From UHGV virus genome UHGV-0197780: a DNA stretch of 52,279 nucleotides; one strand, given 5' to 3'. This document shows, piece after piece, positions 16,201 through 52,279 of the stretch (the stretch's first letter is position 1; every line of letters begins with the position of its first letter). This stretch comes from a virus. Made by a program: the position numbers and the translations under genes. Under the pieces are notes generated by a model. That model saw nothing but the letters and a program-made list of their open reading frames with translations, was not told the DNA's origin and made no database searches.

Positions 16201-19200
16201 GACGCCGACGTTATATCCTTGCCCTGCTGAGTCACTTCGTTAGTGAGATCAGCGATCGCCTTGGCGTTCGCGATAGTACCGGCATTTCTGCGGGTCACCT
16301 TAATGTTATAGATCGTGAGCGTAATGGCGTTTCTGCTATAAGGTTGGAGATAGCCAGTTGTCGCGCCAGCCGGGACAGTGATGGTTCCAGTTACGGCTTT
16401 CTTCTCGCCAGCTGCATAATTTAACGCCTCCACGTAGACCGAGTTGTTCGTCAGGCTCGGGCCATCGAAGCGAATACCCCATGCCAGACCGTTGATTGCG
16501 ACACCAGCCAGACAAAGAAGACTAAAGTCTAGAATGTCGCCAGGTGTTACGGAAAACTTAGGTGAAGTTGGCGCCCATGCTGCTGTATCGATCACAGCCG
16601 GATAACCGTCAACAGTTGTTGCATGACCACCCCAACCCTGAGCGTTATTCAACATTGCGGAGTTTGGAACAATGTTGTCGCCCACCGTTAAAGTATTTTC
16701 TAACAACGTTACGCGATTACCCTGGCTCGTCAGAGCGTCGCCCTGAGAAGTCACGGTGTTCTGGAGAGCGTTCAGCGTAGTTGAGTCAGCCTTTTTACTG
16801 ACATTACTGTTTGTCGTGTTCAGGTTGTTCTGCAATGCAGTAATCTGGCTGCTCGCGGAGGTGATGTCTTTACCCTGCTGAGTAACGGTGTTTTGCAGCG
16901 TAGAGATAGCCGAGGCGTTAGCATCAGCCTTCATCATTACACCACCACCAGCGCCCAGACCTGACATGATGCCGTTAACAAACTCAACAGACGTTGAGAT
17001 GTACGAATCGGCCGCGCCGCCAGTAGGCGCACGTAACTCCAGACCGTCACCAGCTTTCATACCCTTGCGACCAAGCAGGATATAGGCGCCGCGATAAGGC
17101 AGAGAGTTCAAGACCTCCGCTGTGCCACCCAAAAGCTCCATTGCGGCTAAAATAGACGCACGGTTTCCGGCCGGCTCATCGTAGGTCAGCACACAAACAT
17201 AAGTGCCATTAGCCAGCGCCGCAATGTCGTCAGACATCGTTTTGCCGTTATTGGCAGAACCAAAAACGTCATACGTCTTGCTGGTGTCGATAGAGGTCGA
17301 GTTATCAGAATTTACCTTAAAGGTAATCATCGTGTAGCTACGACCAGGGCTAACCAGTTTATTTCCTGACTCATCGAACACGCCATCTTTCACGCTCGGA
17401 CCAATGCCTCTGGAGGTCACGGTGAACACGGTGCGGCGATTGATTGACGCCTGAAGGTTAGCGATGCTGCTGTTAGATGCCGAAATATCCTTGCCCTGTT
17501 GGGTCACGGTATTCTGCAGACTAGATAGCGCCGTCGCGTCAGCTTTCTTTGCAACGTTGGCATTGGTGGTGCTCAGGTTGTTCTGCAGGCTTGTAATGCT
17601 GCTTGAGGCTGAAGCAATGTCTTTGCCCTGCTGGGTAACCGTATTTTGCAGTGTCTGGAGAGCTGCGGCGTCCGCTTTTTTCGCGACGTTCGCGTTGGTC
17701 GTGTCCAGATTGTTTTTCAGATCCGTAATGCTGGTGGACTGCGACGCAATATCTTTACCCTGCTGGGTTACAGTATTCTGGAGAGAAGACAATGCGGAGG
17801 CGTTGGCGTCGATTTTGACACTATCTGTCACATCGATGACATAGAAATCATCAAAGCAACGACTCCCGGCTGTCAAACCGTTACTCAGCGTAACCGGGAG
17901 CTTGGCTGTCTCCGTGGCCTTCCAGCGACCGGAAATCAGCGTCCAGTCGGAACCGATCGTCCCGCTATTGTACGGTCGCTCAAACACCGGCTGACCAGCG
18001 GAGTTGCTGATCCGCAGCTTGTTGTTACCTGCTCCGTTATCAGTGGTCGCTCCGAGATCCTTAACCCATACCCCGATTTCATACGTCCGACCCTGTACAA
18101 AGCTTACATACTGTCCCGGTGACACATAACCAACACCAACCCTCAGCGCTCGTGTCCCACCATGTGGAGTGGAGGTCTCAACCACACTGGCTGCCGCTGA
18201 CTGTCCGATATAACCATCCAGTCCTCGCTCAAACGAGGGATTCACGACCAGGTTACCCGGTATCTTCCCGCTGGCATCGATATCTGCCGCGACCTGCGAG
18301 AGGCTGTTCGACAGGTTCGTCAGCGAATTGCTCTGGCTCTCCAGCGTTTTGCCCTGCTGCGTCACTTTCGTGTCGAGCGTAGCCAGCGCAGTCGCATCGG
18401 CTTTCTGCGCCAGCGCTTTATCGGTATTCGCCAGATTTCCGGTCAGCTTCGTGATGGCGCTGTTCGCAGCCGTCAGGTCATTGCCCAGCTGTGTGACGGT
18501 ATTGGTCAAATTCTGCACCGCTGTCGCATCAGCCTTTTTGGCCACTGCGGCATTGGTGGTTGCCAGCCCGTTTTCCAGCTGGGTTGTCCGGTTGCCGGTC
18601 GAGGTCAGCAGATTACCCTGTTGAGTCACGGTGGTGGTCAGGGAGTCAACCGCCGCCGCCGTGGCATCCGCAGTATCCTGAACCTTTTGCGCCGCTGTCA
18701 CATTTCGCATATGCCAGTCCGTAACGAACCATACGGTGCCGAATGGGCTGGACTGGTTAATTTGCAGGAATGGACGGAAGAAGCCGCGATCGACAATCCC
18801 CTGAGTAATTTTGAATCGCCAGGTTACTCGCTGCCATGTGGCCGACGCCTTGCGGTTGCCGCCGGATGACAGAGGCGCGCCCACGCTGCCGCTTGGCCTT
18901 GTTGCGGTTCCGAGATACAGGTTGAAATCAGCGGAGCCGGTACCACACGCGACGAGAGCAGACATTTCATAGACATCCCCCAATGTCGCCGGAATAGCAG
19001 CAAAATTGGGGTGATGGTCGCGAGCCGCAATGCGTGCAACATAAGCGTATGGGCAATTGGCTGGCACGCCCTCAGACGAGCTGGAAACCACAGTGAAGCC
19101 CATCTGACTAAACTCTGGGTCAAATGTCGGGTTGCTAATCAAATCGCCACTTGTCGCATTCCCTGCGCGTACAGATGAATTAAGCGCAGTGATACTGCTA

Positions 19201-22200
19201 TTCGCAGAGGATAAGCCCGATTCTGTTTGATCGACGCGCCCGGACAACACGCTTAAAGCGCTCTGATCAGCTTTTTTACTGACGTTGTTATTGGTCGTTG
19301 CCAGGTCATTTGTCAGTTTGGTGATGCTGTTACCCTGACTGGTGATCTGGTCACCCTGTTGGGAGACGGTCGAGTCCAGTGTCGAAATCGCATTGGCATT
19401 AGCGTCTGCTGTACTTTGCGCATTGTAGGCATCAGTCACTTCGGTAATGACCAGGTCATCAATGAGGAATGAGTTACCCGCCTTAACGCTGCTAACGTTA
19501 GGAATAGAAATCCTCACCATTGCCTGCTTAATACCGCTCTTTGTTGATTTCAGGTAACCAGAAACCTTCGTCCATTGAGCTGTAGACAGATCTTTCGCCG
19601 CTCTGGTTACTGCTGGCCACTGCCAGGAGTTGTCCTGATACTGGAGCGATAAGCCGACGGAAATCTGCACGTTCTCGGCCATAGCGGTACTCTTGGCATC
19701 CAGCTTAACCCAGCATTCCATATAGAAGACTGCGTTATCGCGAACCTGGAATCCGCTGAAAATGTGGGTATCAGTGTTGTCAGTTGCATTGGCATTGTAG
19801 TCATTCGGACGCGTCACACGAATGCATTTATTGCCGCCATGCGAGTCGTCAGTGGTCACGATGGCACGGTTATTCGCCAGATTGTGGCCAACCGCGTAGC
19901 TTTCAAAAGTGCCATCAGGAAGCAGATTAGCGCCGCGTTTGGATTGCTGGCTCAGAGAGCTGCTGAGCGACGTAATGTTGCTGTTCGCCGCCGTCAGACC
20001 GGACTCAGTCTTCTCCACGCGTCCGGTTAGCGAGTTCATCGCCGTCTGATCCGCTTTGCTGGCCACATTCGCGTCTGTCTGCGTCAGCGCATTCCGGAGC
20101 TGGGTGATGCTCTGCGAATTGCTGACCACATCATTGCCAATCTGGCTGACATTCGAGCTGAGTACGCCGGCTGCGTTTGCCAGCGCGGAAACACCGAGAC
20201 CGGAGTACATCTCAGCAACCTTGTCTGACAGCTTCAGGCCCAGGTTGATATACGCCTGGCCGGTCCACTGATTCACCAGAAACTCAACGGTATTCCAGCC
20301 GACTTTCAGTTCAAAACTGCCGGTAGTCCAGCTGGCATTCCCCCAGGCAACCTGAACGCCATTTACAAATACAGCGCCGGTATCATCAAAAATCCTGTTA
20401 CCGGGCGCCATTGTGATGGTGGTATCGGCGGCCACTTTCACCTGGCAGGAATACAGCGCGATCAGATAGCTGCCGGCGGATGTAAAGTCCAGTTTGGCCG
20501 CGTCGGACACCTCATCCACGACCACGGGCGCCACGGCGCGAATATCGCTGAATGACGGGACTGTCCCGGCATTAGCCAGCTGCACAGGATAGATCCGACG
20601 GGACCAGCTATTCGGCTGGCCATTGACCAGCTGATTCGACAGACTGGTGATGCTGTCAGTATTGCTTCGAATATCCTGGCCGTTTTGCTCTACCTGCTGC
20701 GTTAAGGCAGTGACCGCAGCCGCTTCGGCTTTCTTCGCCAGCGCGGCATTTGTCGTGCCCAAATCGCTCGTCAGTTTCGTGATGGACTGACCTTGGCTGG
20801 TTATCCTGTCGCCCTGCTGGGTAACCGTAGACTCCAGCCCGCTCAACGCCTCATTCGTACCAGCCAGGCCCGTTTCCGTCTGGCCCACCCGGTTAGTGAG
20901 TGATGTTAACGCGGCTCCCTGCGATGTCAGCGTGGCACCCTGTTGCTCAACTTTCTGCGTCAGGGACGTCAGCGCGGCTGCATCGGCTTTTTTCCCGAGG
21001 CTGGTTTCCAGGCCACCGATACGGCTCGCCTGCGCGCGCTGCTCTGTCGTCAGAGAACTCAGTTCACCAGAAACAGCAGCTTTGTTGTCGTTAAACTGCG
21101 TCTGCAGGGACTCTCTGGCCTTAACTTCCGCCGAGATGGCGGTAACGCGTGCGGTTTTTTCCTGGTACAGCAGCCCGGAGGTGACTTTCTCCAGATCGCT
21201 CCCATCATAGGAGCCACGCATCTGCGCCGCCAACGTGCTGCGTGCCTGCGCTTCGGCAGTCAGCGCGTTACTCAGCGTACTGCGCACATCCTGCAAAGCC
21301 GCCGTACTGGCGCCGGGTGCTGGCCGGCCAACGGCGATCCAGTCGAATTCGATAAAGTTGCTGGCATCCTGCTGGTTCGTCAGGTCCAGGCGAATACGAT
21401 CAATGTTCCCTGTCCACGGAATATCACGCACAGTCAGGGTTGCCACCCCATCGGCATATTCCGGCTCAGCAACAATGTATCGCTTCGTGTTATTGAAGTT
21501 TTCGCCGGCAGACACCCAGCGGATCTCACCCGCCCAGACTGGTTTACCGGTTTTACGAAAGCGCAGCATGATGAAGCGGTACGCCGCACCATCGACAGCC
21601 AGTCCGCCAGGAGAGGTAATGTACGGATCGGTGGCACTGTCCGCCGGGCGTAACCAGCCATCCTGGGACACACCCGGTACGCCGGCGCTGCCGGTCCAGC
21701 CCTCGGTCGTCTGATTGTTGAAATGCCAGATAACCTGCGAATCGAACTGGATATTAGCGCCGGCAGCGAGGCTGGACATTTCCCGCGCCAGATTCTCATC
21801 GGCAGTCTTCATCACCTGAGTCAGGCTCTCGATACTAGCCTCAATCCCCTGCGTTGCCGCCAGCAGTTCATCAGCGGCCTGTGCCGCCTTCGCGTTAACA
21901 TCGGCGATACGATCCGCGGTCTCCTGCTTCACTGCATTGGTCAGCGTGGTGTTAACCTGAGACAGCGACTGCTTCAGGCCATTTTCGGCAGTCTTTATCT
22001 GCGCATTCAATGCGGCATCGCCGTCGGCCAGCGTTTTGCTGACCCTGGCAATCTCCAGGTCGATGGTGGCGTTGATTTCCGCAGCCGTATCGGTGACTGA
22101 CTGTCTTACCTGGGTGATGCTGTCGGTCAACGACTTGTTCACAGTTGCGATCTGCTTGTTCGCATCTGCGACGGCGGATTTTGCCTCCTGAACGCCTTTG

Positions 22201-24947
22201 TTTGCCTGAGCCAGACCAGAATCGAGAGCCTCATTGACCGAGGTGATCTCATCCGTGATGGTTTTATTCACGGCGGAGATCTTCCCGTCAACATCAGCCG
22301 TGATGCTTTTCGCCGATGCATCAATATCCTGGCTGACCTGCTTCGCCTGGTCTTCGGCTTCCTTACGCAGAGCTTCAGCGGTCTGCTCCAGTTCCTGCTG
22401 CGTATTGCGGATACCTTCCTGTGTTTCGCTAATGGTGCGCTGCGTTTCCTCCCAGGCAGCCGTATCCTTGATCGCGTCGGTCAGGTTTTCGTAGTAGTCA
22501 TCAAAGTTATCGCTGGCCATCCCCTGGACCCAGCCGGTCCACGGGCTTTCATTGCCAAGACGATCCACAAGGCGCGCCCGATACCAGAATTCTGCGCCCA
22601 TACTGAGGCCCATCTGCTGATAGCTTTTCCCCGGATAGGCCACGTCTGATAACGGCATTGGCGCACTGCCGTCCTGGTTTTTGCTGTACTGCAGTTCCGT
22701 GCGCAGCGTATCCCCGGAGCCGGTCGGGAACTCCCAGCTAACCTGGACTCCATGAACCAGCGAACGGGTTGCCAGCGCCAGCGGTGCCAGCGGCTCGCCG
22801 ACCTTGCCGGTCAGGGTTTTCTCTTCGGAATACGCCCAGCCGCTCGAGATCTCCGCCGCATTGATCGCGCGGACGCGAACCAGGTAACGACCGGCATAAA
22901 TGCCGCTGACCTCAAACGAGGTGGTCGAGCTGCGCGGCACATTAATCCAGTTCCCGTCGTTACGGCGCCACTGCGCCTCGTAGGCAATAGCGCCGCTGAC
23001 CGCTGACCAGTTAACCTGCATCGTTTCGACGCTGATCCCCTGATTCACGACCGAGCGGGATGTGATGACAATATCGTCAGGAGGTGACTGGTTGCCCGCC
23101 GGCAATACGCTAACCGGGCGCTGATCGATAATCGCGCCGGTATCGATGCGGGCGAATTTATCCGGGTCATGTGACACGCCGGTGATCGTGAGGGTGGCAT
23201 CGCCGTTCTCTTTTACCCCTGTGACCCGGTACTGCTGCAGAAAGAGGTCATTAGATTCTACGGCCCAGACGCATTCCCGTTCTGGCGTCTCACTGTAAGC
23301 CGTTGTGACCGTAATCTGCCGGCGTCCGTTAACGGCCTGGATGGTCCGGCTCTGTGAGATCCCGGATGGCAGGTTTAGCTGGAGGCGGTCGCCAGGTTTG
23401 GCATCCACATCACGATCCAGCGTAATCACCCGGCCATTCATCGCGCTGATCCGCCCGCCGTTGACCCGTCCGGCCAGCAACTCATCCGCCAGGGCAATGA
23501 TATAACCGGGTTGAGGAATGCGCCCGTCCAGCCCCACATCAAACTCAACGACCCGGTCTTTGTTGTTGGTCAGTATGCCCCACAGCCCCTTACGGTGGGC
23601 TTCGCTCTGGCGCGTACAGCCAATCGCGGTCATTTCGAGCTGGTTAAAACTGTAGCGGGAAACCAGTTCCGGGATAAACGCCGGCTCCATTGCATCAGCA
23701 TAAGCATTATCCGGATCAGACCAGGAAACCAGGGCGTTGGTGTACCGAACCTGGCTGCTGCTGCTCGAATAACGGGGTTTGCCGACAATATTGGCGCGCG
23801 TATAGGTAAAATCGACATCACGCGGCATATCAGCCTGCACAACAATCTGCTCACCGTTCCAGCAGGTCATGCCCCGGAAAATGGCGGCAAAGTCTCGCAG
23901 CACGGTGTAAGCATCGTTGCGTTCCTGGACGTAGACGTTACAGGTATAGCGCGGCTCCATGCCGTCACCACCGCGCCCGTCAGGAACCAGCTGATCGCAG
24001 TACTGTGCAATCTGGTACAGCGTCCATTTCGAAATATTGGCGCTGCTCAGACGATTACCGAGACCAAAACGGTCAGCTGTAACAATGTCGTAATAGATCC
24101 AGGCCGGGTTATCCGTCCAGGCCCATTTAAACCCGCCGGTCCAGACGCCGGTATATTCGCGGGTTTCCGGATTGTAGTTATCCGGCACACGAATCACGCG
24201 CCCACGCGGCTCACAGGAAATTTGCGGAATGGAGCCATTAAACTGGCTGGAGTCGAACTCGATATAAAGCAGCGCGGTGTTGGGATAACGCAGCTTCGCG
24301 TCAATCACTTCGGTATAGCTCTGCAGCGTCATCACGTCGCCAACTTTGACACTGTTTGCATCCGGAGAGATTTTACGCAGGCGTAGCGTCCAGGTACTGC
24401 CGGCATGGGGCAGATCAATACGATGGCTCCGCTCATAACCGGAGGTGGTTTTACCCGTGACAGCGGTTTCCAGCACCGTCTGCCAGGCGCCGCCGTCGGT
24501 CTGCAGGTCAATCGCATACTTGACGGTATTGCCCACCACGTCGCCATCATCTTCCTGTTTCATCAGGGACGGCCATTTCAGGCGGACACGAACGGCAGAA
24601 AGCTGGGTATTAGTAAAGGTATGGGTCCAGGCTGTCTTGCTGGAAACTTCCGTTCCTACACTGATTTCATTTTCAGTACCGGGAATACCCTGAATATAAG
24701 TCTGAGCCTGCGTGCCGGGGCGAAATTCCCAGGACACGCCACTGAAGTTTTGCGAACCATCAGCATTTTCAAGCGGGGTGCCATCAAGATAAATATCTTT
24801 CCCGGTTAAACCACCTGCAAATTCACCCTCACCTAATGCGAGCAGAATTTTGGCTTTCGCAACAGACTGTAAATCATCCGGCTGTTCCGTCGGTGTACGC
24901 TGCTTTGAGCCGCCACCCTTGCGCCCTTTAATTATGTTATTTGCCAT
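13260..24947 (-). CDS. giant host-specificity / central tail fibre protein (lambda J-like N- and C-terminal regions with a ~2800-aa insertion)
   Basis: The first ~1100 aa align with lambda J (…CYPNTAL…, VPDNYNP.TR.Y.G.W.G, QYCDQ.VPDG.GG.EPR.TCN…). The C-terminal ~250 aa resemble the J receptor-binding end. The middle holds more than 20 copies of a ~45-aa TVTQQGKDI…NL.TTNANVAKKAD repeat. There are at least 5 NP(S/T)FE…DDLVITDVTD beta-sandwich CBM-like modules. A ~300-aa module is duplicated at ~80% identity, visible at nucleotide level (15300-15600 vs 16850-17150). Confidence 0.8.
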   Translation of the reverse strand: MANNIIKGRKGGGSKQRTPTEQPDDLQSVAKAKILLALGEGEFAGGLTGKDIYLDGTPLENADGSQNFSGVSWEFRPGTQAQTYIQGIPGTENEISVGTEVSSKTAWTHTFTNTQLSAVRVRLKWPSLMKQEDDGDVVGNTVKYAIDLQTDGGAWQTVLETAVTGKTTSGYERSHRIDLPHAGSTWTLRLRKISPDANSVKVGDVMTLQSYTEVIDAKLRYPNTALLYIEFDSSQFNGSIPQISCEPRGRVIRVPDNYNPETREYTGVWTGGFKWAWTDNPAWIYYDIVTADRFGLGNRLSSANISKWTLYQIAQYCDQLVPDGRGGDGMEPRYTCNVYVQERNDAYTVLRDFAAIFRGMTCWNGEQIVVQADMPRDVDFTYTRANIVGKPRYSSSSSQVRYTNALVSWSDPDNAYADAMEPAFIPELVSRYSFNQLEMTAIGCTRQSEAHRKGLWGILTNNKDRVVEFDVGLDGRIPQPGYIIALADELLAGRVNGGRISAMNGRVITLDRDVDAKPGDRLQLNLPSGISQSRTIQAVNGRRQITVTTAYSETPERECVWAVESNDLFLQQYRVTGVKENGDATLTITGVSHDPDKFARIDTGAIIDQRPVSVLPAGNQSPPDDIVITSRSVVNQGISVETMQVNWSAVSGAIAYEAQWRRNDGNWINVPRSSTTSFEVSGIYAGRYLVRVRAINAAEISSGWAYSEEKTLTGKVGEPLAPLALATRSLVHGVQVSWEFPTGSGDTLRTELQYSKNQDGSAPMPLSDVAYPGKSYQQMGLSMGAEFWYRARLVDRLGNESPWTGWVQGMASDNFDDYYENLTDAIKDTAAWEETQRTISETQEGIRNTQQELEQTAEALRKEAEDQAKQVSQDIDASAKSITADVDGKISAVNKTITDEITSVNEALDSGLAQANKGVQEAKSAVADANKQIATVNKSLTDSITQVRQSVTDTAAEINATIDLEIARVSKTLADGDAALNAQIKTAENGLKQSLSQVNTTLTNAVKQETADRIADVNAKAAQAADELLAATQGIEASIESLTQVMKTADENLAREMSSLAAGANIQFDSQVIWHFNNQTTEGWTGSAGVPGVSQDGWLRPADSATDPYITSPGGLAVDGAAYRFIMLRFRKTGKPVWAGEIRWVSAGENFNNTKRYIVAEPEYADGVATLTVRDIPWTGNIDRIRLDLTNQQDASNFIEFDWIAVGRPAPGASTAALQDVRSTLSNALTAEAQARSTLAAQMRGSYDGSDLEKVTSGLLYQEKTARVTAISAEVKARESLQTQFNDNKAAVSGELSSLTTEQRAQASRIGGLETSLGKKADAAALTSLTQKVEQQGATLTSQGAALTSLTNRVGQTETGLAGTNEALSGLESTVTQQGDRITSQGQSITKLTSDLGTTNAALAKKAEAAAVTALTQQVEQNGQDIRSNTDSITSLSNQLVNGQPNSWSRRIYPVQLANAGTVPSFSDIRAVAPVVVDEVSDAAKLDFTSAGSYLIALYSCQVKVAADTTITMAPGNRIFDDTGAVFVNGVQVAWGNASWTTGSFELKVGWNTVEFLVNQWTGQAYINLGLKLSDKVAEMYSGLGVSALANAAGVLSSNVSQIGNDVVSNSQSITQLRNALTQTDANVASKADQTAMNSLTGRVEKTESGLTAANSNITSLSSSLSQQSKRGANLLPDGTFESYAVGHNLANNRAIVTTDDSHGGNKCIRVTRPNDYNANATDNTDTHIFSGFQVRDNAVFYMECWVKLDAKSTAMAENVQISVGLSLQYQDNSWQWPAVTRAAKDLSTAQWTKVSGYLKSTKSGIKQAMVRISIPNVSSVKAGNSFLIDDLVITEVTDAYNAQSTADANANAISTLDSTVSQQGDQITSQGNSITKLTNDLATTNNNVSKKADQSALSVLSGRVDQTESGLSSANSSITALNSSVRAGNATSGDLISNPTFDPEFSQMGFTVVSSSSEGVPANCPYAYVARIAARDHHPNFAAIPATLGDVYEMSALVACGTGSADFNLYLGTATRPSGSVGAPLSSGGNRKASATWQRVTWRFKITQGIVDRGFFRPFLQINQSSPFGTVWFVTDWHMRNVTAAQKVQDTADATAAAVDSLTTTVTQQGNLLTSTGNRTTQLENGLATTNAAVAKKADATAVQNLTNTVTQLGNDLTAANSAITKLTGNLANTDKALAQKADATALATLDTKVTQQGKTLESQSNSLTNLSNSLSQVAADIDASGKIPGNLVVNPSFERGLDGYIGQSAAASVVETSTPHGGTRALRVGVGYVSPGQYVSFVQGRTYEIGVWVKDLGATTDNGAGNNKLRISNSAGQPVFERPYNSGTIGSDWTLISGRWKATETAKLPVTLSNGLTAGSRCFDDFYVIDVTDSVKIDANASALSSLQNTVTQQGKDIASQSTSITDLKNNLDTTNANVAKKADAAALQTLQNTVTQQGKDIASASSSITSLQNNLSTTNANVAKKADATALSSLQNTVTQQGKDISASNSSIANLQASINRRTVFTVTSRGIGPSVKDGVFDESGNKLVSPGRSYTMITFKVNSDNSTSIDTSKTYDVFGSANNGKTMSDDIAALANGTYVCVLTYDEPAGNRASILAAMELLGGTAEVLNSLPYRGAYILLGRKGMKAGDGLELRAPTGGAADSYISTSVEFVNGIMSGLGAGGGVMMKADANASAISTLQNTVTQQGKDITSASSQITALQNNLNTTNSNVSKKADSTTLNALQNTVTSQGDALTSQGNRVTLLENTLTVGDNIVPNSAMLNNAQGWGGHATTVDGYPAVIDTAAWAPTSPKFSVTPGDILDFSLLCLAGVAINGLAWGIRFDGPSLTNNSVYVEALNYAAGEKKAVTGTITVPAGATTGYLQPYSRNAITLTIYNIKVTRRNAGTIANAKAIADLTNEVTQQGKDITSASSDISLLKNSLATTDANVAKKADSSALSSLQSTVNQQGTSISSIGNRTTSLENGLSTAQNNIARKADASALQDLRNTVTSQGGDLTAANSSITSLQASMNRRTVFTVTARGLGNSVTPGVFDESGKNLFSPGRSWALVTFAKQSDGSAVIATSKTYDVFGSANNGDTMSADIGALTSGTYVCVLTFDEPSGNRGRLLSALESLGGTSEVVNSLPYRGAYILLGRKGMKPGDGLELRAPTGGDATAHISTSVEFVNGIMMGLGAAGGVMMKADANASAITTLQNTVKTQGGNIDSLSSSITALENSLRSTNDTVSKKADTTAVSSLTGRVSQVENTITSQSQSITSLTSSINTISTQGANPWVDGTFESYSDGHVLGGGGTAVVVASQKFTGNMSLQVSRGANNNGNSDKQLGSWQSVREDAKFRFEFWAMMPADQAPSSGWTTLVGINSLNAAGQNSWQSAVTVSEAALGGRDKWVKFTGIASNNGGGRTRAVVWISTRGASGSGTPGYSLYIDDLVITDVTDAKAAQDASDATASAVSGLTARVTDAEGKITAQAQQQTALATKVDNANSRVDNMAKTLSDSQSTQASLNTSLQSQIDAQAAANIKNQTTLDNTIKSVASITSTQQTHATALEALATQQTTLTSSVGDLSASVQNTAKTVADVNGTVSSLWSMKVETVNGKNVGAGITLGSNGETSDMILYADRFSLFNRNNATAVPVMVAEGNELYIDTARIKNSSLTSTKIADGSITNAKIGHEIRSNDFVDGSRGWRIAKDGSSQFNNVIVRGAVYATDGWFQGTVYANHIEGDIGSFAINIAQHRTRKVPKATWQWFELARFRRQNFDQVINIRGGLLQTDSITIDGGAKLRAGMSYAPGADGGLNPGYLSYAMLLRGTGATSGGGSMELGIELMYETGGATRLLTAQESMNVDNMSFVVPAGTGDAVLRYGCYLDRNGQMVLTILSRFDAFAARNNNVIRGSST

Positions 24948-44797: not shown

Positions 44798-45305
44798 ACA
44801 AAGTAGGCATTCTAGGTAGTAACGAAACGAAGGCATCCCTAATAGTCCGAGCTACCGATTTACCAGGAAGCATTCACTTTTGCCGTTACGTTCTATAAAC
44901 ATAGAAGGGCAACCGTAAAAGTAAACCCACTATGAAATATTCAATATGCTTAGTGACAGTGTGGTGCCGGGTGCCTCCCGGTGAGCATGCCCCAGTCGGC
45001 ATGGCCCGCGCTGCATTTACAGGTTTCTGTAACTGACTGGTCGCCCCTCCGCACAGGGGGATTCACCACATCAATACCTTATGATGGGAAGATTCTATAC
45101 GTCAATACCATAGGCGTATTGCTAAGCCACCAGCTATGCAGCAACTCCATCAGAAATAACCAGTTATCGAGGTAATGGCATTTTCAGAGCCCCCCGGATT
45201 ACATTAGGATGGTTTGGATAAAGGACTCAGCTGATTTAGCAACAAGCCGTATCCATAAATGAAAAGGCCGCCAGTACGGCGACCTTTGATTAGGATATAT
45301 AGAGA

Positions 45306-45713
45306 TTAGTGGACGACAATTTCCATCTTTTGCCCCAACGCTGATAGCGCTTTTTGGATCGTATCGATTTTGGTGCTGTGACCAAGAGACACGATGCGCT
45401 GCACTTCCTGTGGGCGCGTGTTAATCATGCGGGCGAGATCAGCATTGCTGGTGTTGGTGCTGACCAGACGGTTTAACAGCAATACTTTAGCTGCCACGCT
45501 GGCCGGAACCTCAACAAACGCATCACCTTCTGCTGATGGAGCGGGAATCTCCCGGCGGTCGTCAAAGTAAAAATCAAACGCCGTCACCAGGGCATCTTGC
45601 GCCATTTCTAACGCTTCCTCCCTGGTCTCTCCTCCCGTCATTGCCTCTGGGATATCCGGAAAGAATACCGCCCAGCCGGTTTCGTCATGCTCAAAAATTA
45701 CCGGGTATCGCAT
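45306..45713 (-). CDS. hicB: HicB antitoxin (RNase-H-like N-domain + C-terminal HTH)
   Basis: The N-terminus MRYPVIFEHDETGWAVFFPDIPEAMTGGETREEALEMAQDAL is the canonical HicB N-domain. Confidence 0.8.
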   Translation of the reverse strand: MRYPVIFEHDETGWAVFFPDIPEAMTGGETREEALEMAQDALVTAFDFYFDDRREIPAPSAEGDAFVEVPASVAAKVLLLNRLVSTNTSNADLARMINTRPQEVQRIVSLGHSTKIDTIQKALSALGQKMEIVVH

Positions 45714-45760
45714 ATTGATTAAGTGAACCTCCGCGAGTACCAGCCCCGAGGGGCTGGATT

Positions 45761-45934
45761 TTATTTGATACCGAGTTGCTTAAGAATTGCCTTCCTCAGC
45801 GGTTCCGGTATTTCCTTCCCCGGATGTCTCGGCATTACCGTTTGCTTGCCGTTGAGATAGATTTTCAAGTGGTTAGTACCATCTTTAAATTCTGCCCCTT
45901 GAGCTGCAAGCCAACGCCTCAACTCGCTTTGCTT
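45761..45934 (-). CDS. hicA: HicA mRNA-interferase toxin
   Basis: LNGKQTVMPRHPGKEIPEPLRKAILKQLGI is the HicA motif. The GTG start has a perfect GGAGGAGGAA SD. The listed ORF is extended upstream from a TTG. Confidence 0.75.
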   Translation of the reverse strand, partial: KQSELRRWLAAQGAEFKDGTNHLKIYLNGKQTVMPRHPGKEIPEPLRKAILKQLGIK

Positions 45935-45970
45935 CACTTCCTCCTCCTGTCTGTTTAACTTGAGACAAGT

Positions 45971-46022
45971 ATAAACATTTTTGTTTATAGCATCAAGCAA
46001 AGAATAAACATTTTTGTTTATA
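45971..46022. promoter_or_regulatory. two copies of the palindrome ATAAACAtttttGTTTAT upstream of hicAB (candidate HicB operator/promoter)
   Basis: Exact 18-bp palindromes lie at 45971-45988 and 46004-46021. Confidence 0.5.
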
Positions 46023-46333
46023 TAAATAACAGAGGGAGCTATTGCCCAACACCTCTACGCCACGGTGAGGCGAAGCAAATCAATTATGCGATATACGACG
46101 ATGTGACAAGGGTACTGATGCAATGCATCTCGCGAATACCCCCTGTCGTATCGCCGGAAAGCAAAAACCCCGCCGAGCGGCAGGGTTCTAATGGTTAAGC
46201 GGTGTGTCGAAGTGACCACTCTTAACAGATTACGATAGTTTTTGCGTACGCGTTAGTGTTTTTATATGATATTAGAAAAATCAACACGGAAGTACAAAAC
46301 GTGAGCGAGATCATAAAATTAAGAGGGCTGATG

Positions 46334-48085
46334 AGTTCAAAAACCATAGAGCCGTTCATCCGACACATTAGGTTTCCTTTCTATAAAAATCTTGAAGAGT
46401 TCAGTGTAATTAATTTTAATTATCCTATCACAGCATTAGTAGGACAAAACGGAACAAATAAGAGTTCGGTTTTAAGGGCCCTCTATGGCTCTCCTAATAA
46501 CTACTCTCTTGGTAGCTTGTGGTTTTCCACTGACATTGATGAAATAAAAGATGATGGAAGATCAAGATTCATATATGGTTATTTCGATTATTCAATCAAA
46601 GAAGTTGTCGAAGTAATTAAAACAAGGATCGTTGACCCTGATGATCCTGATCTTTGGGAAACATCTAGACCACTTGCAGGTGATGGCATGAAAAAAATGC
46701 CAAAAAATATTGTTTCCCCAAATCAACAAAAGTCGCGATGGAAACAAATTGATAAATTAGTTACCTATATCGACTTCAGGGCATCAATAAGTGCTTTTGA
46801 CAAATTTTTTTACCACTCTGACTTTAATCTTTATCCTAAGAAAACTTTTTTACGTAAAAGAAGCCACATATTAAAAGATGTAATTGAAAACAATTCATCC
46901 AGCTGCAAACCTTTCAAGGGTAAAAAGGAGAGGTTATATAATAACGAACTTCTTTCCAAAGAGAAAGTTGAAATTATAAGCCATATTTTAGGTCGAACTT
47001 ATAAAAGCATCAGACTAGTGGAGCATGCCCTCTTCACTAATGATAAAGCATCTACAGTTATACTGGAATCAAACAGTCTTAACTATTCTGAAGCCTTTGC
47101 AGGCAGTGGTGAATTTGCAGTAACTTTATTGGTTAATCAGATAATAAACGCCCCAAATGCTTCTTTAATCTTATTAGATGAACCAGAAGTTTCGCTCCAT
47201 CCTGCTGCACAAATAAGACTCATGGAATTTTTAAACCAAATTTGTCTTAAAAACAAACATCAGGTTGTTATTTCGACCCATTCGTCATCAATTGTAAGGG
47301 ATCTTCCTCAAGAGTCTATAAAACTTTTTACATTAAATTCCACAACAGGCAAAGTAAGTATTCTTGAAAATGTTAGTCCAGAGGAGGCATTTTTCACTCT
47401 CGGTGACAGACTGTCAAAAAAAACAATTTTCGTCGAAGATAAACTCGCTCAGAAATTCGTTGAAAAGGCTTTAAAAACTGGTGGTTCAGCTTTAGTCAAT
47501 ACATTTGATATAATTTACTGTCCTGCTGGAGCAACCACTTTACTAGGTAATATTGCTGTCCCGTTATTTTTATCCAATGTAACTAATGCAGTATTTTTAT
47601 TGGATGGAGATCAAAAAACACTTACTGACTTTATAAAGTCCACCCAAATTCCAGAAGACCAAGATCCTGCTCTATCTGAAATATTAAAAAGCATCCTTGG
47701 GTGTGAAATAAAAATTCCGACAGATGGAAATGGCGGCAAACCTAATGAGAAGCAAAAAAAGCTTCTTCATCGTGGATTTATTGATTTCTCATATAATTTC
47801 ATAGGTTATTTACCGGTAATAAACCCAGAGGTTTTTTTAATCGAAAACCTACCTGACTTTTATTTAGATTTAATCAAAGACAAGGACACAGCAGGCCTAT
47901 CACCCAAAGAAATAACCGTGGAAATATGTAAAAATGATATTGGGAGCAATGAAATTACATCAGATGATATATTTGCCACGCAAATCAGAATCCTATCAAA
48001 AATACCTGATAATCATCCTGCATTTATAGAAACAAGAGAGATGCTGAAATTTTTTCTTGAACATGGTATGATCAGGGATAAGTAA
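46334..48085 (+). CDS. OLD-family nuclease: N-terminal ABC-type ATPase + C-terminal TOPRIM (P2 Old / PARIS AriAB-like)
   Basis: ATPase motifs are Walker A ALVGQNGTNKSSVLRAL, Walker B/D-loop LILLDEPEVSLHP and H-loop VISTHS. The C-terminal TOPRIM-like motifs are TIFVEDK (Glu) and VFLLDGDQ (DxD). The ATG at 46334 gives a 583-aa product. The gene is AT-rich, on the opposite strand to the phage genes, and ends 4 nt before the MTase gene. Confidence 0.65.
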   Translation, partial: SSKTIEPFIRHIRFPFYKNLEEFSVINFNYPITALVGQNGTNKSSVLRALYGSPNNYSLGSLWFSTDIDEIKDDGRSRFIYGYFDYSIKEVVEVIKTRIVDPDDPDLWETSRPLAGDGMKKMPKNIVSPNQQKSRWKQIDKLVTYIDFRASISAFDKFFYHSDFNLYPKKTFLRKRSHILKDVIENNSSSCKPFKGKKERLYNNELLSKEKVEIISHILGRTYKSIRLVEHALFTNDKASTVILESNSLNYSEAFAGSGEFAVTLLVNQIINAPNASLILLDEPEVSLHPAAQIRLMEFLNQICLKNKHQVVISTHSSSIVRDLPQESIKLFTLNSTTGKVSILENVSPEEAFFTLGDRLSKKTIFVEDKLAQKFVEKALKTGGSALVNTFDIIYCPAGATTLLGNIAVPLFLSNVTNAVFLLDGDQKTLTDFIKSTQIPEDQDPALSEILKSILGCEIKIPTDGNGGKPNEKQKKLLHRGFIDFSYNFIGYLPVINPEVFLIENLPDFYLDLIKDKDTAGLSPKEITVEICKNDIGSNEITSDDIFATQIRILSKIPDNHPAFIETREMLKFFLEHGMIRDK

Positions 48086-48089
48086 AGTT

Positions 48090-49139
48090 ATGGCGGGTTT
48101 TATAATGAGCAAAAAGATCAGAGTTTTCGATTTTTTCTCTGGCTGCGGTGGCACTAGCCAAGGTCTAAAAACTGCTGGTTGTGAGATTGTTTTTGGCCTA
48201 GATTTTGATTATGACTCAAGCGAAACCTTTAAGGCTAACAATCCTGATGCCGTATTCATCAATGATGACATTAGGTCAGTTGATGTTGCTGACATCTCTC
48301 AATTAGTTGAAACGGCAAAAAAAGATGCAAAGATTCTGTTCTGCGGGTGCGCTCCATGCCAACCTTTTTCAAAGCAAAATCAGAATAAAACCACTTCAGA
48401 TCCCAGAAGAGGTTTGTTATCAGAATTCGGTCGCTTTGTCGAATTCTACGAACCCGATTATGTATTGATAGAAAATGTGCCTGGTTTACAAAAAGTGGAT
48501 GTAAATGACGGTCCTCTCTATGGTTTTATTTCTATTCTAAAAAATAGGAATTACAATCTTGTTTATGGCGTTATTCCAGCATTATGGTATGGTGTTCCGC
48601 AAACGCGTGAAAGATTTGTTTTAATGGCCTCTCTTGAATCTCAAATTCATTTACCGGAGCGCACTCATAATGGAACTGATATTCCATTCGCTACGGTTAG
48701 AGATTGGATTGGTAACATACCCTCTATTGAAGCCGGGGAATCTCATCCGTTGGTGAAAGACCATGTTAGTGCAAAACTTTCAGAGCTGAATTTAAAACGA
48801 ATTAGATGCACCCCTGAAGGTAAAGGACGAGAATATTGGCCAAGAGAACTTTTGCTTGAATGCCACAAGAAGCATACAGGTCATAGCGACGTTTATGGGC
48901 GTTTGGCATGGGATAAACCAGCAAGTGGGTTAACTACACGATGCATTAGTTACTCAAACGGCCGGTTTGGACATCCCGAACAAGACAGAGCTATTTCTGT
49001 TCGGGAGGCGGCCCTACTTCAAACGTTTCCAATAGATTACATTTTTAAAGGCTCCATGCTATCTAAGGCGAAACAAATAGGTAATGCTGTTCCGCCAAAA
49101 ATGGCTGAGTCAATAGGAAATGTTTTTATCAATATTTAA
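48090..49139 (+). CDS. DNA (cytosine-5)-methyltransferase
   Basis: Motif I FDFFSGCGG, motif IV GCAPCQPFS (PC catalytic Cys), ENVPG, QTRERF and motif X GNAVPP. Confidence 0.85.
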   Translation: MAGFIMSKKIRVFDFFSGCGGTSQGLKTAGCEIVFGLDFDYDSSETFKANNPDAVFINDDIRSVDVADISQLVETAKKDAKILFCGCAPCQPFSKQNQNKTTSDPRRGLLSEFGRFVEFYEPDYVLIENVPGLQKVDVNDGPLYGFISILKNRNYNLVYGVIPALWYGVPQTRERFVLMASLESQIHLPERTHNGTDIPFATVRDWIGNIPSIEAGESHPLVKDHVSAKLSELNLKRIRCTPEGKGREYWPRELLLECHKKHTGHSDVYGRLAWDKPASGLTTRCISYSNGRFGHPEQDRAISVREAALLQTFPIDYIFKGSMLSKAKQIGNAVPPKMAESIGNVFINI

Positions 49140-49163: not shown

Positions 49164-49505
49164 CTAAAGCATCATTAAAACCCCTTCAATAAACCCCATG
49201 GCATTATGCAATTCTTTCCTGATGGTACCATCAGAGCATTTAAGTTTCTTAGCGATGCTACGTAAGGAGATTCCGATAATAAAATGAGCAATAATTAACT
49301 CATACTCTTCTGGCTTATATTTCCGCAATCGCGCTACACAACCGTCAATCATGATACCTTCATCATCATCGCATTGCTGGCGTGTTTTCTTTCCATGAGG
49401 TAGCAAACCTTTAAACCCAGCAGCAATGGGTTGCCAGTCAACACCACTATTGTCAGATGCCGCCCAAGCTCCCCAGCGGTCCAATATTTCGTACATATCT
49501 CTCAT
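49164..49505 (-). CDS. late antiterminator Q-like protein
   Basis: The size and a Cys-containing motif (…DGCVARLRKYKPEEYELIIAHF…) fit the phage 82/21-type Q family. A GAGGAG SD precedes the start. It lies upstream of the lysis genes. Confidence 0.55.
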   Translation of the reverse strand: MRDMYEILDRWGAWAASDNSGVDWQPIAAGFKGLLPHGKKTRQQCDDDEGIMIDGCVARLRKYKPEEYELIIAHFIIGISLRSIAKKLKCSDGTIRKELHNAMGFIEGVLMML

Positions 49506-49517
49506 TTTTAAAGCTCC

Positions 49518-50549
49518 TCAGGAAAGAACGCCGAGCGCGTATGCCCGGTCCAGCAATTTAATAATCAATACCGGCTGGGTGCCGTATTCACGCTCAAAAG
49601 CGGCAGGGTCATGGTGCAAAGCACGGTGGTGCTTGCGGCATAATGGGATCGTAAAAATATCGTGGGCCTTGGTGCCTACGCCGCCCTGCCCCCAGCCAAT
49701 AAGGTGGTGTGCATCATCTGCAGGCTGCCCGCAGCACATACACGGCTGTTTTTTAACCCATGAGATAAAGTCAGCTGATAACCATCGGCTCCGCTTAGGT
49801 CTCGCGAATAGTGTCGCCGGTGCAACAGGATCGACGTTCACAGGAACCAGAGGTTTGCCCGGCGTTGTTATTGCCGTTGGCTTGATTGCTTTTTCGAGAC
49901 GGGGAGAAAGAATGCTGGTGGCCGGTACCGACGGAACAATCTCACTCTCCCTGTAAACCGATTTAATGCCATCGTCTTTAATACGCAGGGATCGGCGCGC
50001 CATTTCTTCTGTAATTTCATCGCCAATCCCGGCGCCTACCGCCCACCAGCATAGCTCCGCCAGTGACAATGAGCGCTGAGCGTCCAGACCAAGCGCGATG
50101 CGGGCAGTGTCGATTACCCAGTCAGCGTTGTTAACACCTACCAGTTGATCGAGGGTTTGTTCCGTTTGGTTTTTCAGCTCATTATCACAGTGCCAGCATG
50201 CGATTATTACACCCGTCGAATGGCGAAACGGGACGAGCTCATGGTGATGGTAATCGGAATGTGTCCACTGACAGTTTTTAACCTGCCTACGCAACCATGA
50301 CTCGAGGGCACTAACTCCACCAGCTGCAGTGATAACTGCCTTCTTCATGAAAAAAGGTCTGATCCCCACATCATCCCGCAACGGCTGCCGGGCATCAGGA
50401 AGACGTCCACTGGGTATCTTTTTCATGCTTGCCGGCGGCATTTCAACAAGAACTCGGCCGGCACCGAATAACGGCATTAATTCACTACCCGGCTTAAGCA
50501 GCACAATTCCAAGATGGCGTGCAATATCCACGTTAAGCAAAGCTCGCAT
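49518..50549 (-). CDS. DUF968/NinG-like protein with C-terminal Cys/His (HNH-like zinc) motif
   Basis: The C-terminus is CMCCGQPADDAHHL…GTKAHDIFTIPLCRKHHRALHHDP. The ATG at 50549 has a GGAGGGA SD. It sits in the nin-region position upstream of Q. Confidence 0.4.
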   Translation of the reverse strand: MRALLNVDIARHLGIVLLKPGSELMPLFGAGRVLVEMPPASMKKIPSGRLPDARQPLRDDVGIRPFFMKKAVITAAGGVSALESWLRRQVKNCQWTHSDYHHHELVPFRHSTGVIIACWHCDNELKNQTEQTLDQLVGVNNADWVIDTARIALGLDAQRSLSLAELCWWAVGAGIGDEITEEMARRSLRIKDDGIKSVYRESEIVPSVPATSILSPRLEKAIKPTAITTPGKPLVPVNVDPVAPATLFARPKRSRWLSADFISWVKKQPCMCCGQPADDAHHLIGWGQGGVGTKAHDIFTIPLCRKHHRALHHDPAAFEREYGTQPVLIIKLLDRAYALGVLS

Positions 50550-50752
50550 CAGTCCCTCCACATCTTCTGTATGTAGGTCCTGTCAATCCGTGGCGGCTTC
50601 TTCGATTCCGGCAACAACACGCGGATCTCCCACGATGCAAAGTCTCTGGATAAGCTCTTCTCAACCACACAGTTATTTTTACGGTATCGCTCCACCAGCT
50701 CTGTAGCCTCAGCCTCTGAAAGCTGCTCGTGTAAAAACCAACTTTTCTTCAT
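50549..50752 (-). CDS. hypothetical 67-aa nin-region protein
   Basis: Its ATG overlaps the upstream stop (ATGA). Confidence 0.3.
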   Translation of the reverse strand: MKKSWFLHEQLSEAEATELVERYRKNNCVVEKSLSRDFASWEIRVLLPESKKPPRIDRTYIQKMWRD

Positions 50753-51141
50753 GGCTGATCACCGAACAGTCGCAAAAACTCAATCGCTCTTTCCCGCGCT
50801 CCGGGTTCTTCAGCGATCATTTCCTGCAGCAGCTGCACGGCGAGCATAGGCTCCTTTCGCCCGACGATGGAAATTCCTCTGGAGACACGGCGAGAGAGTT
50901 TTATAAAATTTTTTCTCTCTAACGCACGCAGATGCAACAGGACAGCATTAGACGAGCTAACGCCGAGCATATCGGCCAGCTCAGATAGCGTAGGTGGGTA
51001 GCCATGCTGATTGATGTAGGCCACCAGCAGATCGAAAACTTCCTGCTGGCGAAAAGTTAGTTTTGAAGACGAAAGCAAACCGGCGCTCGATGAAGGAGCA
51101 CCAGTCTGATGGGATTTTGATACTTCGGGGGTTTGCGTCAT
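50749..51141 (-). CDS. LexA-like DNA-binding-domain protein lacking the peptidase domain
   Basis: [53 protein letters not shown] aligns with the LexA N-terminal wHTH ([30 protein letters not shown]…). There is no S24 Ser/Lys domain. The ATG at 51141 has a GGAGAG SD; the listed ORF is extended from a TTG. Confidence 0.55.
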   Translation of the reverse strand: [130 protein letters not shown]

Positions 51142-51181
51142 GGTTTCTCTCCGCGACGCAGCAGGTATAGGTTGTTCAGGC

Positions 51182-51472
51182 CTATGACGGGATTGTAACA
51201 GAACCAGGAGGAACCTGGTAACCAACTCCAGACTTAGCCTTTTCAATCATCTGTGAAAAAAGAGAGAGCGTCCCCACGATCTCATCCGGCTGCAAAGGCA
51301 TAAACGAAACAGTGTCGCCGCGCCGGTACATTAAAGCGCGCTCACACACAGGAAAGGATGTCAGACGGGCAACGATCACCCCATCGTCGCATCTGATAAT
51401 TGCATAGCCGGTGTTCGGCATTTCTTGTTTTTTACTCACAGCAAAATCCTCAAAATAAACCAGGCAAGCCAC
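51182..51472 (-). CDS. hypothetical protein
   Basis: An ORF between the DinI-like and LexA-DBD genes. Its start is uncertain. Confidence 0.25.
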   Translation of the reverse strand: MACLVYFEDFAVSKKQEMPNTGYAIIRCDDGVIVARLTSFPVCERALMYRRGDTVSFMPLQPDEIVGTLSLFSQMIEKAKSGVGYQVPPGSVTIPS

Positions 51473-51483
51473 TGGACCTTAAC

Positions 51484-51717
51484 TTAACAGAACCAGTCAT
51501 CAGCGCTTTCCCAGGTGTCTTGCAGGATTTCCTCTACACGTGTTTTATCTCCGTCCATTCCACCAAGCACGGTCAACCCATCAGAGCTGGCCCGACGAAT
51601 CACAAGACTGCAGTTATTAAAGTTTTGATCCAATCGCCGCAGTAGCTCCTTCTCCAGAGCAGGCACAGCGCCATCCGGCAATTTTTTTTGGCGATCAATT
51701 GTGATTTCCACTTTCAT
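51484..51717 (-). CDS. dinI: DinI-family protein
   Basis: MKVEITIDRQKKLPDGAVPALEKEL…EEILQDTWESADDWF matches E. coli DinI nearly end to end. A GAGGAG SD precedes the start. Confidence 0.8.
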   Translation of the reverse strand: MKVEITIDRQKKLPDGAVPALEKELLRRLDQNFNNCSLVIRRASSDGLTVLGGMDGDKTRVEEILQDTWESADDWFC

Positions 51718-51736
51718 AACTAGCTCCTCACGCAGA

Positions 51737-51756
51737 TACTGTACAAATAAACAGTA
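51737..51756. promoter_or_regulatory. LexA (SOS) box upstream of the DinI-like gene
   Basis: TACTGTACAAATAAACAGTA fits the CTGT-N8-ACAG consensus. It lies 20 nt upstream of the dinI-like start. Confidence 0.7.
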
Positions 51757-52279
51757 TACTTGTTAGTTAAAATGTTCAAGCGTTTAATGCCACTTTTCGC
51801 TAACCCATGCTCATGTTTAGATTGATCTTTTCTCCACAAAGGACGAAACCCACTATCACAGGGATACAGTCATTTTTGTGGTGATCAACACCGTTGATAA
51901 GAAACGATGCTACCTCTGACGCTCCAGACTCCGCTATTGGCACAGAGCGGACAATCTGAATGGGATGAAGGTCTGCTTCGAGCGAGGAGCGGACATTGAC
52001 ATATCTGTTTAAGTGGCCAAATTTAGCTATCCACAACAGTTGTTTGTGGTTGCTCAGGATTATATGCAAAGATCGCCGCTATACAGTTGGCCAGTAATCA
52101 GGGACTGGTTGGTTAATTTTGGTGATAAAATGAATAGATTAGAGTAAAAAAACATAGATTCAAAAGAGGTTATGAGAATATAATTTAACTATATACCCGA
52201 GGGTACCCTTAAACTGATTTTATGCACCCTGCAATGAGCGATAATTAAGCACCAAGGTTTTTCTTAAACCTTTTATTAA

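Follow-up and report, generated by a model that had tools for sequence, protein, structure and literature searches.

A LexA-derived DNA-binding protein encoded in a probable Gifsy-type SOS induction operon of the virus genome UHGV-0197780

The operon and its SOS box

The virus genome UHGV-0197780, analyzed as one stretch of 52,279 nucleotides (nt) and referred to below as the window, bears close to its right end, in a Klebsiella-type prophage, a minus-strand operon that begins with a dinI homologue preceded by a LexA (SOS) box. The second gene (open reading frame ORF85) encodes a homologue of the GfoA/GfhA antirepressors, and the third one a protein of 130 amino acids (aa) that corresponds to LexA's DNA-binding domain; orf67, a DUF968 gene, and the antiterminator gene Q follow (Table 1). 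Because a GfoA-family homologue comes after dinI behind a LexA box, the locus is very probably a Gifsy-type SOS induction module. As for the LexA-like protein, it might serve as a RecA-insensitive dimeric surrogate repressor of SOS-type boxes, a tentative reading to which we give somewhat less than an even chance.

The 20-mer TACTGTACAAATAAACAGTA that constitutes the box occurs a single time in the window, and it is also the only site there with the exact CTGT-N8-ACAG core, for which about one match is expected by chance in 52 kb. When compared with TACTG(TA)5CAGTA, which we take to be the LexA-box consensus, the box agrees at 17 of the 20 positions, and all the mismatches fall within the AT spacer. 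On the coding strand, the region reads TTGAAC-N15-TATACTGTTTATTTGTACAGTA, followed by 19 nt and the dinI ATG. The TTGAAC/TATACT pair, for which we infer promoter activity, is collinear with the dinI promoters of Gifsy-2, mEp237, and Chris1, and it can be aligned with that of Gifsy-2 base for base. The Gifsy-2 dinI promoter has been shown experimentally to be LexA-dependent (Lemire et al. 2011, PMC3121763). The box is taken as real because of its near-consensus match, its overlap with the -10 region upstream of dinI, and its alignment with this validated promoter.

Related loci were sampled as 80 close prophage loci from IMG/VR, 77 of which have enough upstream DNA for a box count; in 71 of these, an exact box lies no more than 120 nt upstream of the gene that opens the operon. 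Thus, the dinI-like gene with a LexA box in its promoter, as described in an earlier sequence-only reading of this DNA, is well founded as regards both the box and the Pfam match of the gene product. The NCBIfam DinI model gives 89 bits for the latter, under its equivalog cutoff of 111.

Extra exact SOS boxes exist in some related Klebsiella prophages, at a distance of about 480 bp on the upstream side of the dinI box and of about 1.4 kb on the downstream side of Q (locus L023, position 2906; L040, 2904; L013, 7420; L026, 7428), which suggests that additional phage genes are controlled by LexA there. In four loci (L026, L032, L080, and L081), unrelated GC-rich DNA replaces the region immediately upstream of dinI. 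Two of them, L026 and L032, have an SOS box about 1.9 kb farther upstream of dinI, suggesting an insertion between the promoter and the gene.

Table 1. Features of the operon in the window
Feature	Position	Strand	Remarks
LexA (SOS) box, TACTGTTTATTTGTACAGTA (coding-strand reading)	51737-51756	-	Overlaps the -10 region of the operon promoter
Putative sigma-70 promoter	51753-51779	-	-35 TTGAAC at 51774-51779, -10 TATACT at 51753-51758; 15-nt spacer as in Gifsy-2
dinI homologue, 77 aa, C-terminal ILQDTWESADDWF	51484-51717	-	Pfam DinI 6.9e-25; PHROG 189
ORF85, GfoA/GfhA-family antirepressor homologue, 85 aa	51182-51439	-	PHROG 1813; GTG start 7 nt past GAGGA
LexA-derived DNA-binding protein, 130 aa	50749-51141	-	ATG after GGAGAG; second gene downstream of dinI
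orf67, 67 aa	50549-50752	-	PHROG 1212; start overlaps the stop codon of the LexA-like gene (ATGA)
DUF968/HNH-type nuclease-like protein (YdfU family)	49518-50561	-	Pfam DUF968 4.2e-70; PHROG 96; weak HNHc_6 and RecA_dep_nuc matches
Late-gene antiterminator Q	49164-49505	-	Pfam Phage_antitermQ 1.6e-46; nin region ends here

The antirepressor homologue and the Gifsy organization

The operons of the prophages Gifsy-1, -2, and -3 have the order dinI - antirepressor (gfoA, gftA, or gfhA) - irsA, in which the antirepressor holds the position of ORF85, and the GfoA-type gene couples Gifsy induction to the SOS response (PMC3121763). As a GfoA reference, IMG/VR was scanned with the annealing segment of the forward primer published for gfoA. 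In 58 contigs, the primer site forms the beginning of an ORF of 82 aa whose start codon is TTG or GTG, and in the one contig with upstream sequence that was inspected (L100), this ORF follows dinI with the Gifsy box. ORF85 is 37% identical to the primer-defined 82-aa Salmonella protein (GfoA) over 84 residues (E 3e-12). A relationship with the Gifsy-2 antirepressor GftA was also considered, but ORF85 has no detectable similarity to that protein, and the link concerns the GfoA branch only. ORF85 homologues are located directly 3′ of dinI and are followed by a DUF1367 gene in SPN3UB, mEp237, and pAEv1818; in Chris1, the homologue likewise comes after dinI, but the DUF1367 gene is absent.

The immunity region of the window prophage lies beyond the window end (52279), and the evidence on the repressor comes from Kp4865-4, a complete and near-identical phage (98.8% identity between its ORF85 and that of the window). 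Its repressor candidate is a 143-aa HTH_3 protein (HTH, helix-turn-helix) that adjoins YdaS- and YdaT-like genes and has no S24 peptidase domain, which points to a non-cleavable type of repressor in need of an antirepressor.

The window operon and the Gifsy operon have in common the LexA box over the promoter, dinI as the first gene, a small GfoA-family antirepressor with a non-AUG start as the second one, and the site between the replication genes and Q (PMC3121763); a short HTH_3 repressor candidate without a peptidase domain is seen in Kp4865-4. The two operons differ in the third gene, which is irsA in Gifsy and encodes a LexA-derived winged HTH protein in the window. The possibility that the two are one and the same gene was ruled out, IrsA (STM1020) being a DUF1367 protein. 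Since irsA fills the third slot in Gifsy-2 and a homologue of orf67 follows it there, the LexA-like gene and irsA are alternative cassettes in one syntenic frame; orf67 homologues come after irsA in SPN3UB and mEp237 as well. The analogy with Gifsy that had been drawn from the sequence alone is apt, but it overlooked the GfoA-family gene between dinI and the LexA-like gene.

Induction through a LexA-repressed antirepressor instead of repressor cleavage would be shared with phage 186 (Tum) and N15 (AntC). The modules of these phages differ from the window operon in gene order and proteins, and no LexA-derived gene has been reported in them. Tum contains a DinI-like half (described in PMC3121763).

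The LexA-like protein is a DNA-binding domain without a peptidase domain

Residues 26-89 of the 130-aa protein match the Pfam model LexA_DNA_bind (PF01726) with 1.9e-20 (72.8 bits against a cutoff of 23.7), and the E. coli LexA structures in the PDB are matched at about 1e-14. The score with the NCBIfam LexA model (TIGR00498, an equivalog) is 68.6, below the cutoff of 110.95. The match to the phage family PHROG 362 ('transcriptional repressor', 1.5e-41) is longer, with residues 26-128 aligned to positions 2-104 of the 106 in the profile, the C-terminal helical region included.

In the AlphaFold2 model (mean predicted local distance difference test, pLDDT, 76.5), a disordered N-terminus (residues 1-24) is followed by a winged HTH at about 26-93 (helices 30-46, 52-59, and 64-76; strands 80-82 and 90-92) and by a C-terminal two-helix hairpin at 96-126 (helices 96-109 and 115-126). 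Foldseek places the winged HTH on the N-terminal domain of E. coli LexA (3jso) over 67 residues, with 52% identity and a root-mean-square deviation of 0.6-1.8 Å. For the hairpin, Foldseek returned no informative match; it is conserved in alignments of the LexA-like family. From the model, we infer that the hairpin, which is amphipathic, substitutes for the C-terminal domain of LexA as a dimerization module.

In the BLASTP alignment with LexA LVGRVAAGEPLLAQQ, the hinge reads IVGR---KEP against VGRVAAGEP, that is, the VAA-G segment is gone and there is no Ala-Gly site. The chain stops at residue 130 after the two helices, before any S24/dimerization domain, and thus lacks the Ser-Lys dyad. In terms of LexA numbering, Ala84-Gly85, Ser119/Lys156, and the C-terminal dimerization domain are all missing. 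No S24 peptidase domain was found anywhere in the window, where tblastn with the LexA C-terminal domain yielded only a 12-residue match (E 6.3). A hidden or frameshifted S24 domain downstream was ruled out, as the ORFs located there encode the 67-aa protein, the DUF968/HNH protein, and Q. Moreover, the 130-aa form represents a cluster (P0002) of more than 1000 sequences, which in Klebsiella are named 'LexA family protein' or 'DNA-binding protein', and since this length is common to the cluster, the gene cannot be a lexA with a frameshift. The protein resembles a LexA of gammaproteobacterial type that has lost precisely the segment with the Ala-Gly cleavage site and all that follows residue 112 or so. 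The sequence-only reading, which had placed a non-cleavable protein with the LexA N-terminal winged HTH and no S24 domain two genes downstream of dinI, holds on all these counts.

For dimerization and for binding to the RecA filament, LexA relies mainly on its C-terminal domain, and the C-terminal VAA marks the cleaved LexA N-terminal fragment for ClpXP. The earlier suggestion that the phage protein heterodimerizes with LexA finds no structural support, for the domain that bears the dimer interface is absent from it. The homology to the LexA N-terminal domain only would be in keeping with a poison or decoy that pairs with LexA or titrates activated RecA or ClpXP, but with the C-terminal domain, the interface for both the dimer and the RecA filament, wholly absent and VAA deleted, such a role is very improbable.

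Two minor features of this region were left unused, neither of them being meaningfully above shuffled expectation: a 13-pair terminator-like hairpin with a T-rich tract (51076-51108, minus strand) within the part of the gene encoding the disordered N-terminal extension, and a promoter-like match in ORF85 (51192-51221). In the library of proteins clustered at 50% identity, many members, P0122, P0128, and P0140 among them, contain two tandem LexA_DNA_bind stretches within 140-260 residues; these proteins may be single-chain pseudo-dimers of the LexA domain.

Distribution of the family and selection on the gene

The LexA-like family spans many genera, and at 50% clustering, 17 proteins match the family profile with E <= 1e-30. 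Two subfamilies can be distinguished by length. Members of 130-135 aa are found in the Klebsiella pneumoniae complex, K. oxytoca, Raoultella, Enterobacter, and Phytobacter, and only they have the N-terminal extension, in which the motif (S/N)AGL(L/S)S is conserved. In every locus examined, their gene is next after the ORF85 homologue. The first slot of the operon is occupied by dinI in the K. pneumoniae complex and K. oxytoca, by nothing in Enterobacter, and by a full-length phage-borne recA in Raoultella and Phytobacter. The Raoultella recA (L094, 3538-4684; Pfam RecA 3e-132) lies behind two overlapping SOS boxes, and both this gene and the Phytobacter one (L159, 2600-3685) are followed by an antirepressor homologue and the LexA-like gene. 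The box scan covered the K. pneumoniae complex, Raoultella, and Enterobacter, where it confirmed upstream SOS boxes; K. oxytoca and Phytobacter share the gene order. The subfamily of 105-108 aa includes SfV orf42 and its counterparts in SfII, SfIV, mEp460, cdtI, Stx2 phages, and Salmonella prophages. These proteins are about 42-44% identical to the window protein, the C-terminal hairpin included, and differ from it by the absence of the N-terminal extension and, in most of them, by the presence of Glu45.

As many as 60 distinct alleles of the LexA-like gene exist in 78 loci, with no premature stop. The ratio of nonsynonymous to synonymous polymorphism (pN/pS) is 0.19 overall and varies along the gene, from 0.07 in the winged HTH through 0.21 for the C-terminal region to 0.47 for the N-terminal extension; positions 60-71, the recognition helix, are invariant across the 60 alleles. 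Judged by this variation, the gene is under purifying selection and is a functional gene rather than a broken lexA. The alternative, that a truncated homologue of a host gene is a decaying, functionless remnant of a captured lexA, is effectively refuted by the intact alleles, by these ratios, and by the length kept in more than 1000 sequences from many genera, and retains hardly any probability at all.

DNA specificity and the probable target

Residues of LexA implicated in DNA binding are Ser39, Asn41, Ala42, Glu44, and Glu45 (Knegtel et al., cited through PMC13416735). Across the family, Ser39 is invariant, Asn41 is nearly so, and Ala42 is usual, and all three are kept in the window allele; Glu44 is never kept. 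Position 45 is Glu or Asp in most family clusters and Leu, Leu, or Ala in the Klebsiella clade. The residues aligned to LexA Arg7, Gln8, Ser39, Asn41, Lys53, Arg64, Gly65, and Ile66 are invariant or nearly so, the wing SRGI being conserved. Ser39, Asn41, Ala42, and the wing are shared with the N-terminal domain of E. coli and Klebsiella LexA and of non-inducible LexA, together with the winged HTH fold. Taken as a whole, the family seems made for reading a (C)TGT half-site of the LexA type, and binding of the LexA-like protein to SOS boxes is plausible.

In a perfect-palindrome scan of the non-coding DNA at the window's right end and in Kp4865-4, the yield was limited to the SOS box, terminator-like hairpins, and hicAB operators. 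The search for alternative operators in the window and the complete phage Kp4865-4 (TGT-N8-ACA with symmetric flanks, generic palindromes) gave no convincing candidate. In Salmonella homologues, an SOS-like CTGT-AGGAG(A/G)TG-ACAG covers the ribosome-binding site and the GTG start of the LexA-like gene (L090, 4984-5003; L091, 3236; L092, 2620; L093, 3267). This match is absent from SfV and was set aside as likely due to chance.

Several observations weigh against the window protein being a surrogate repressor of SOS boxes. First, Glu44-Glu45 is replaced by Leu-Leu in the window allele, and close Klebsiella relatives carry Thr-Leu or Val-Ala at these positions; because of the Leu-Leu replacement, the window allele may no longer contact the outermost base of the half-site (the first C in CTGT). 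Second, dimerization through the hairpin, and hence the spacing of the half-sites, is derived from a model of the monomer alone. Third, genes of the 105-108-aa subfamily are located between a Dam-like methylase gene and rusA and are not beside dinI, an antirepressor gene, or an SOS box, so that the pairing with dinI pointed out in the sequence-only reading is true of the window locus, but not of the family. Fourth, in the mosaic loci L018, L055, and L060, dinI and ORF85 are 47-62% identical to those of the window, and the LexA-like gene is 98-100% identical; such swapping of the dinI-antirepressor cassette argues against its tight co-adaptation with the LexA-like gene. Finally, the literature search found no paper on the enterobacterial LexA-like family and no binding, expression, or phenotype data, and the only characterized truncated phage LexA homologue that it found is an activator acting at a non-LexA site.

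This protein is gp6 of the Bacillus tectivirus GIL01, the closest characterized analogue of the window protein, whose binding site is GaCACAnnTGTGaC and which acts as an activator of the late promoter P3 (Fornelos et al. 2018, PMC6182141). Like the window protein, gp6 is a phage LexA DNA-binding domain without a peptidase domain and is associated with a phage switch that depends on host LexA. It differs in being only 66 aa long, in having no C-terminal hairpin, and in its origin from a Bacillus-type LexA. The two proteins gave no BLASTP match, are 24% identical in a MAFFT multiple alignment, and are not orthologues; they represent independent captures of LexA domains from different hosts.

The example of gp6 speaks for the main rival explanation, according to which the LexA-like protein is a transcription factor dedicated to the phage, whose operator has diverged; it would activate or repress, e.g., delayed-early, late, or moron promoters and have no action at host SOS boxes. 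The variation at LexA positions 44-45 (LL, TL, VA, AE, TD, VE, FE, FI, and AT) is as expected of diversifying specificity; the LexA-like gene stays with orf67 and the DUF968 gene while the upstream SOS cassette is exchanged, and the SfV-type members reside in ordinary nin-region operons. However, apart from the SOS box and terminator-like hairpins, the scans of the window and of the complete related phage gave no candidate operator, most members have a recognition helix (SPNAAxEHL, in the Raoultella allele SPNAAAEHL) that hardly differs from the one in LexA, and a changed specificity would be surprising at so high an identity to host LexA. A phage-specific factor is a serious possibility, although on this evidence not a probable one.

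It could also be supposed that the LexA-like protein acts by contacts with the antirepressor or the prophage repressor, buffering or timing the antirepressor, with the N-terminal extension as an interaction or degradation signal. The antirepressor and the LexA-like protein persist as a pair down to about 52-61% protein identity in five genera or species groups, and the (S/N)AGL(L/S)S extension is limited to the subfamily encoded next to the antirepressor. Against this stand the strongest constraint being on the DNA-binding domain and recognition helix, the separation of the two genes by mosaic exchange, and the fact that in Gifsy, with irsA in the slot, GfoA-family antirepressors work without such a partner (PMC3121763). 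We regard a role through protein contacts as improbable.

A possible mechanism

In the following scheme, the events at the promoter are strongly supported by homology with Gifsy, and the part on the LexA-like protein develops the tentative surrogate-repressor reading. In the lysogen, host LexA bound at the box over the promoter would keep the operon off. Removal of LexA upon DNA damage would allow transcription of dinI, the gfoA-like antirepressor gene, the LexA-like gene, orf67, and the DUF968 gene; as may be supposed from the lambdoid gene order, the operon would also be transcribed in lytic growth by read-through from the early rightward promoter. By homology, the antirepressor should inactivate the short non-cleavable HTH_3 repressor of the prophage. 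The LexA-like protein would have originated from a gammaproteobacterial lexA by replacement of the cleavage site and the peptidase/dimerization domain with the short helical hairpin, which is proposed to mediate dimerization, and it should be insensitive to activated RecA. It is further proposed that the protein binds LexA-type (C)TGT palindromes, the box of its own operon included. If so, it would accumulate as host LexA is destroyed and would re-close SOS-type promoters. The result would be a pulse of the antirepressor, a delayed negative feedback on the operon, and a host SOS regulon damped in cooperation with DinI (or phage RecA in the relatives).

In its furthest extension, this scheme makes the protein a RecA-proof surrogate LexA that, once the antirepressor has fired, re-closes not only its own operon but also the SOS regulon of the host and the antirepressor operons that LexA controls in rival prophages. 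With DinI, or with a phage-borne RecA in the Raoultella and Phytobacter relatives, it would make up an operon of three parts by which the host damage response is rewired and the prophage induced first gains priority. We consider this extended version unlikely.

As a whole, the module is very probably of the known Gifsy kind, and its third gene, derived from lexA, is a member of an annotated phage family; no description of the arrangement was found in the literature searched. The antirepressor-based, LexA-wired induction known for Gifsy would thus be present in very common Klebsiella prophages, in which SOS-inducing antibiotics (e.g., fluoroquinolones) could trigger induction and gene transfer. 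If the LexA-like family binds SOS boxes, it would provide viruses with a means to switch off the DNA-damage response of bacteria, and co-resident prophages with a tool of competition. If it binds elsewhere, this would be the second, independent recruitment of a LexA DNA-binding domain by phages after GIL01 gp6.

Other features of the window

PADLOC assigned no defense system to the LexA-like protein, orf67, or the DUF968 protein. On the plus strand (46256-49139), a gene for a 609-aa AAA_21/AAA_15 ATPase (PADLOC HEC-04 1.4e-35; ATPase-Toprim, PtuA, GajA, and Old-like matches) precedes that of a 349-aa C5 cytosine methyltransferase. Inserted between Q and the lysis genes and convergent with Q, the two genes look like a defense-type moron.

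Farther along, a hicA (58 aa)/hicB (135 aa) toxin-antitoxin pair is located on the minus strand (45306-46030) with two copies of the palindrome TATAAACAAAAATGTTTAT in front, which are probably HicB operators. In the K. oxytoca locus L158, too, a hicAB pair is found downstream of Q. Between hicB and the lysis region, the minus strand has an Rfam match to the small RNA STnc100 (44917-45102; 78.3 bits, E 4e-15). The prophage tail region contains a single ORF of 3895 aa on the same strand (13260-24947).

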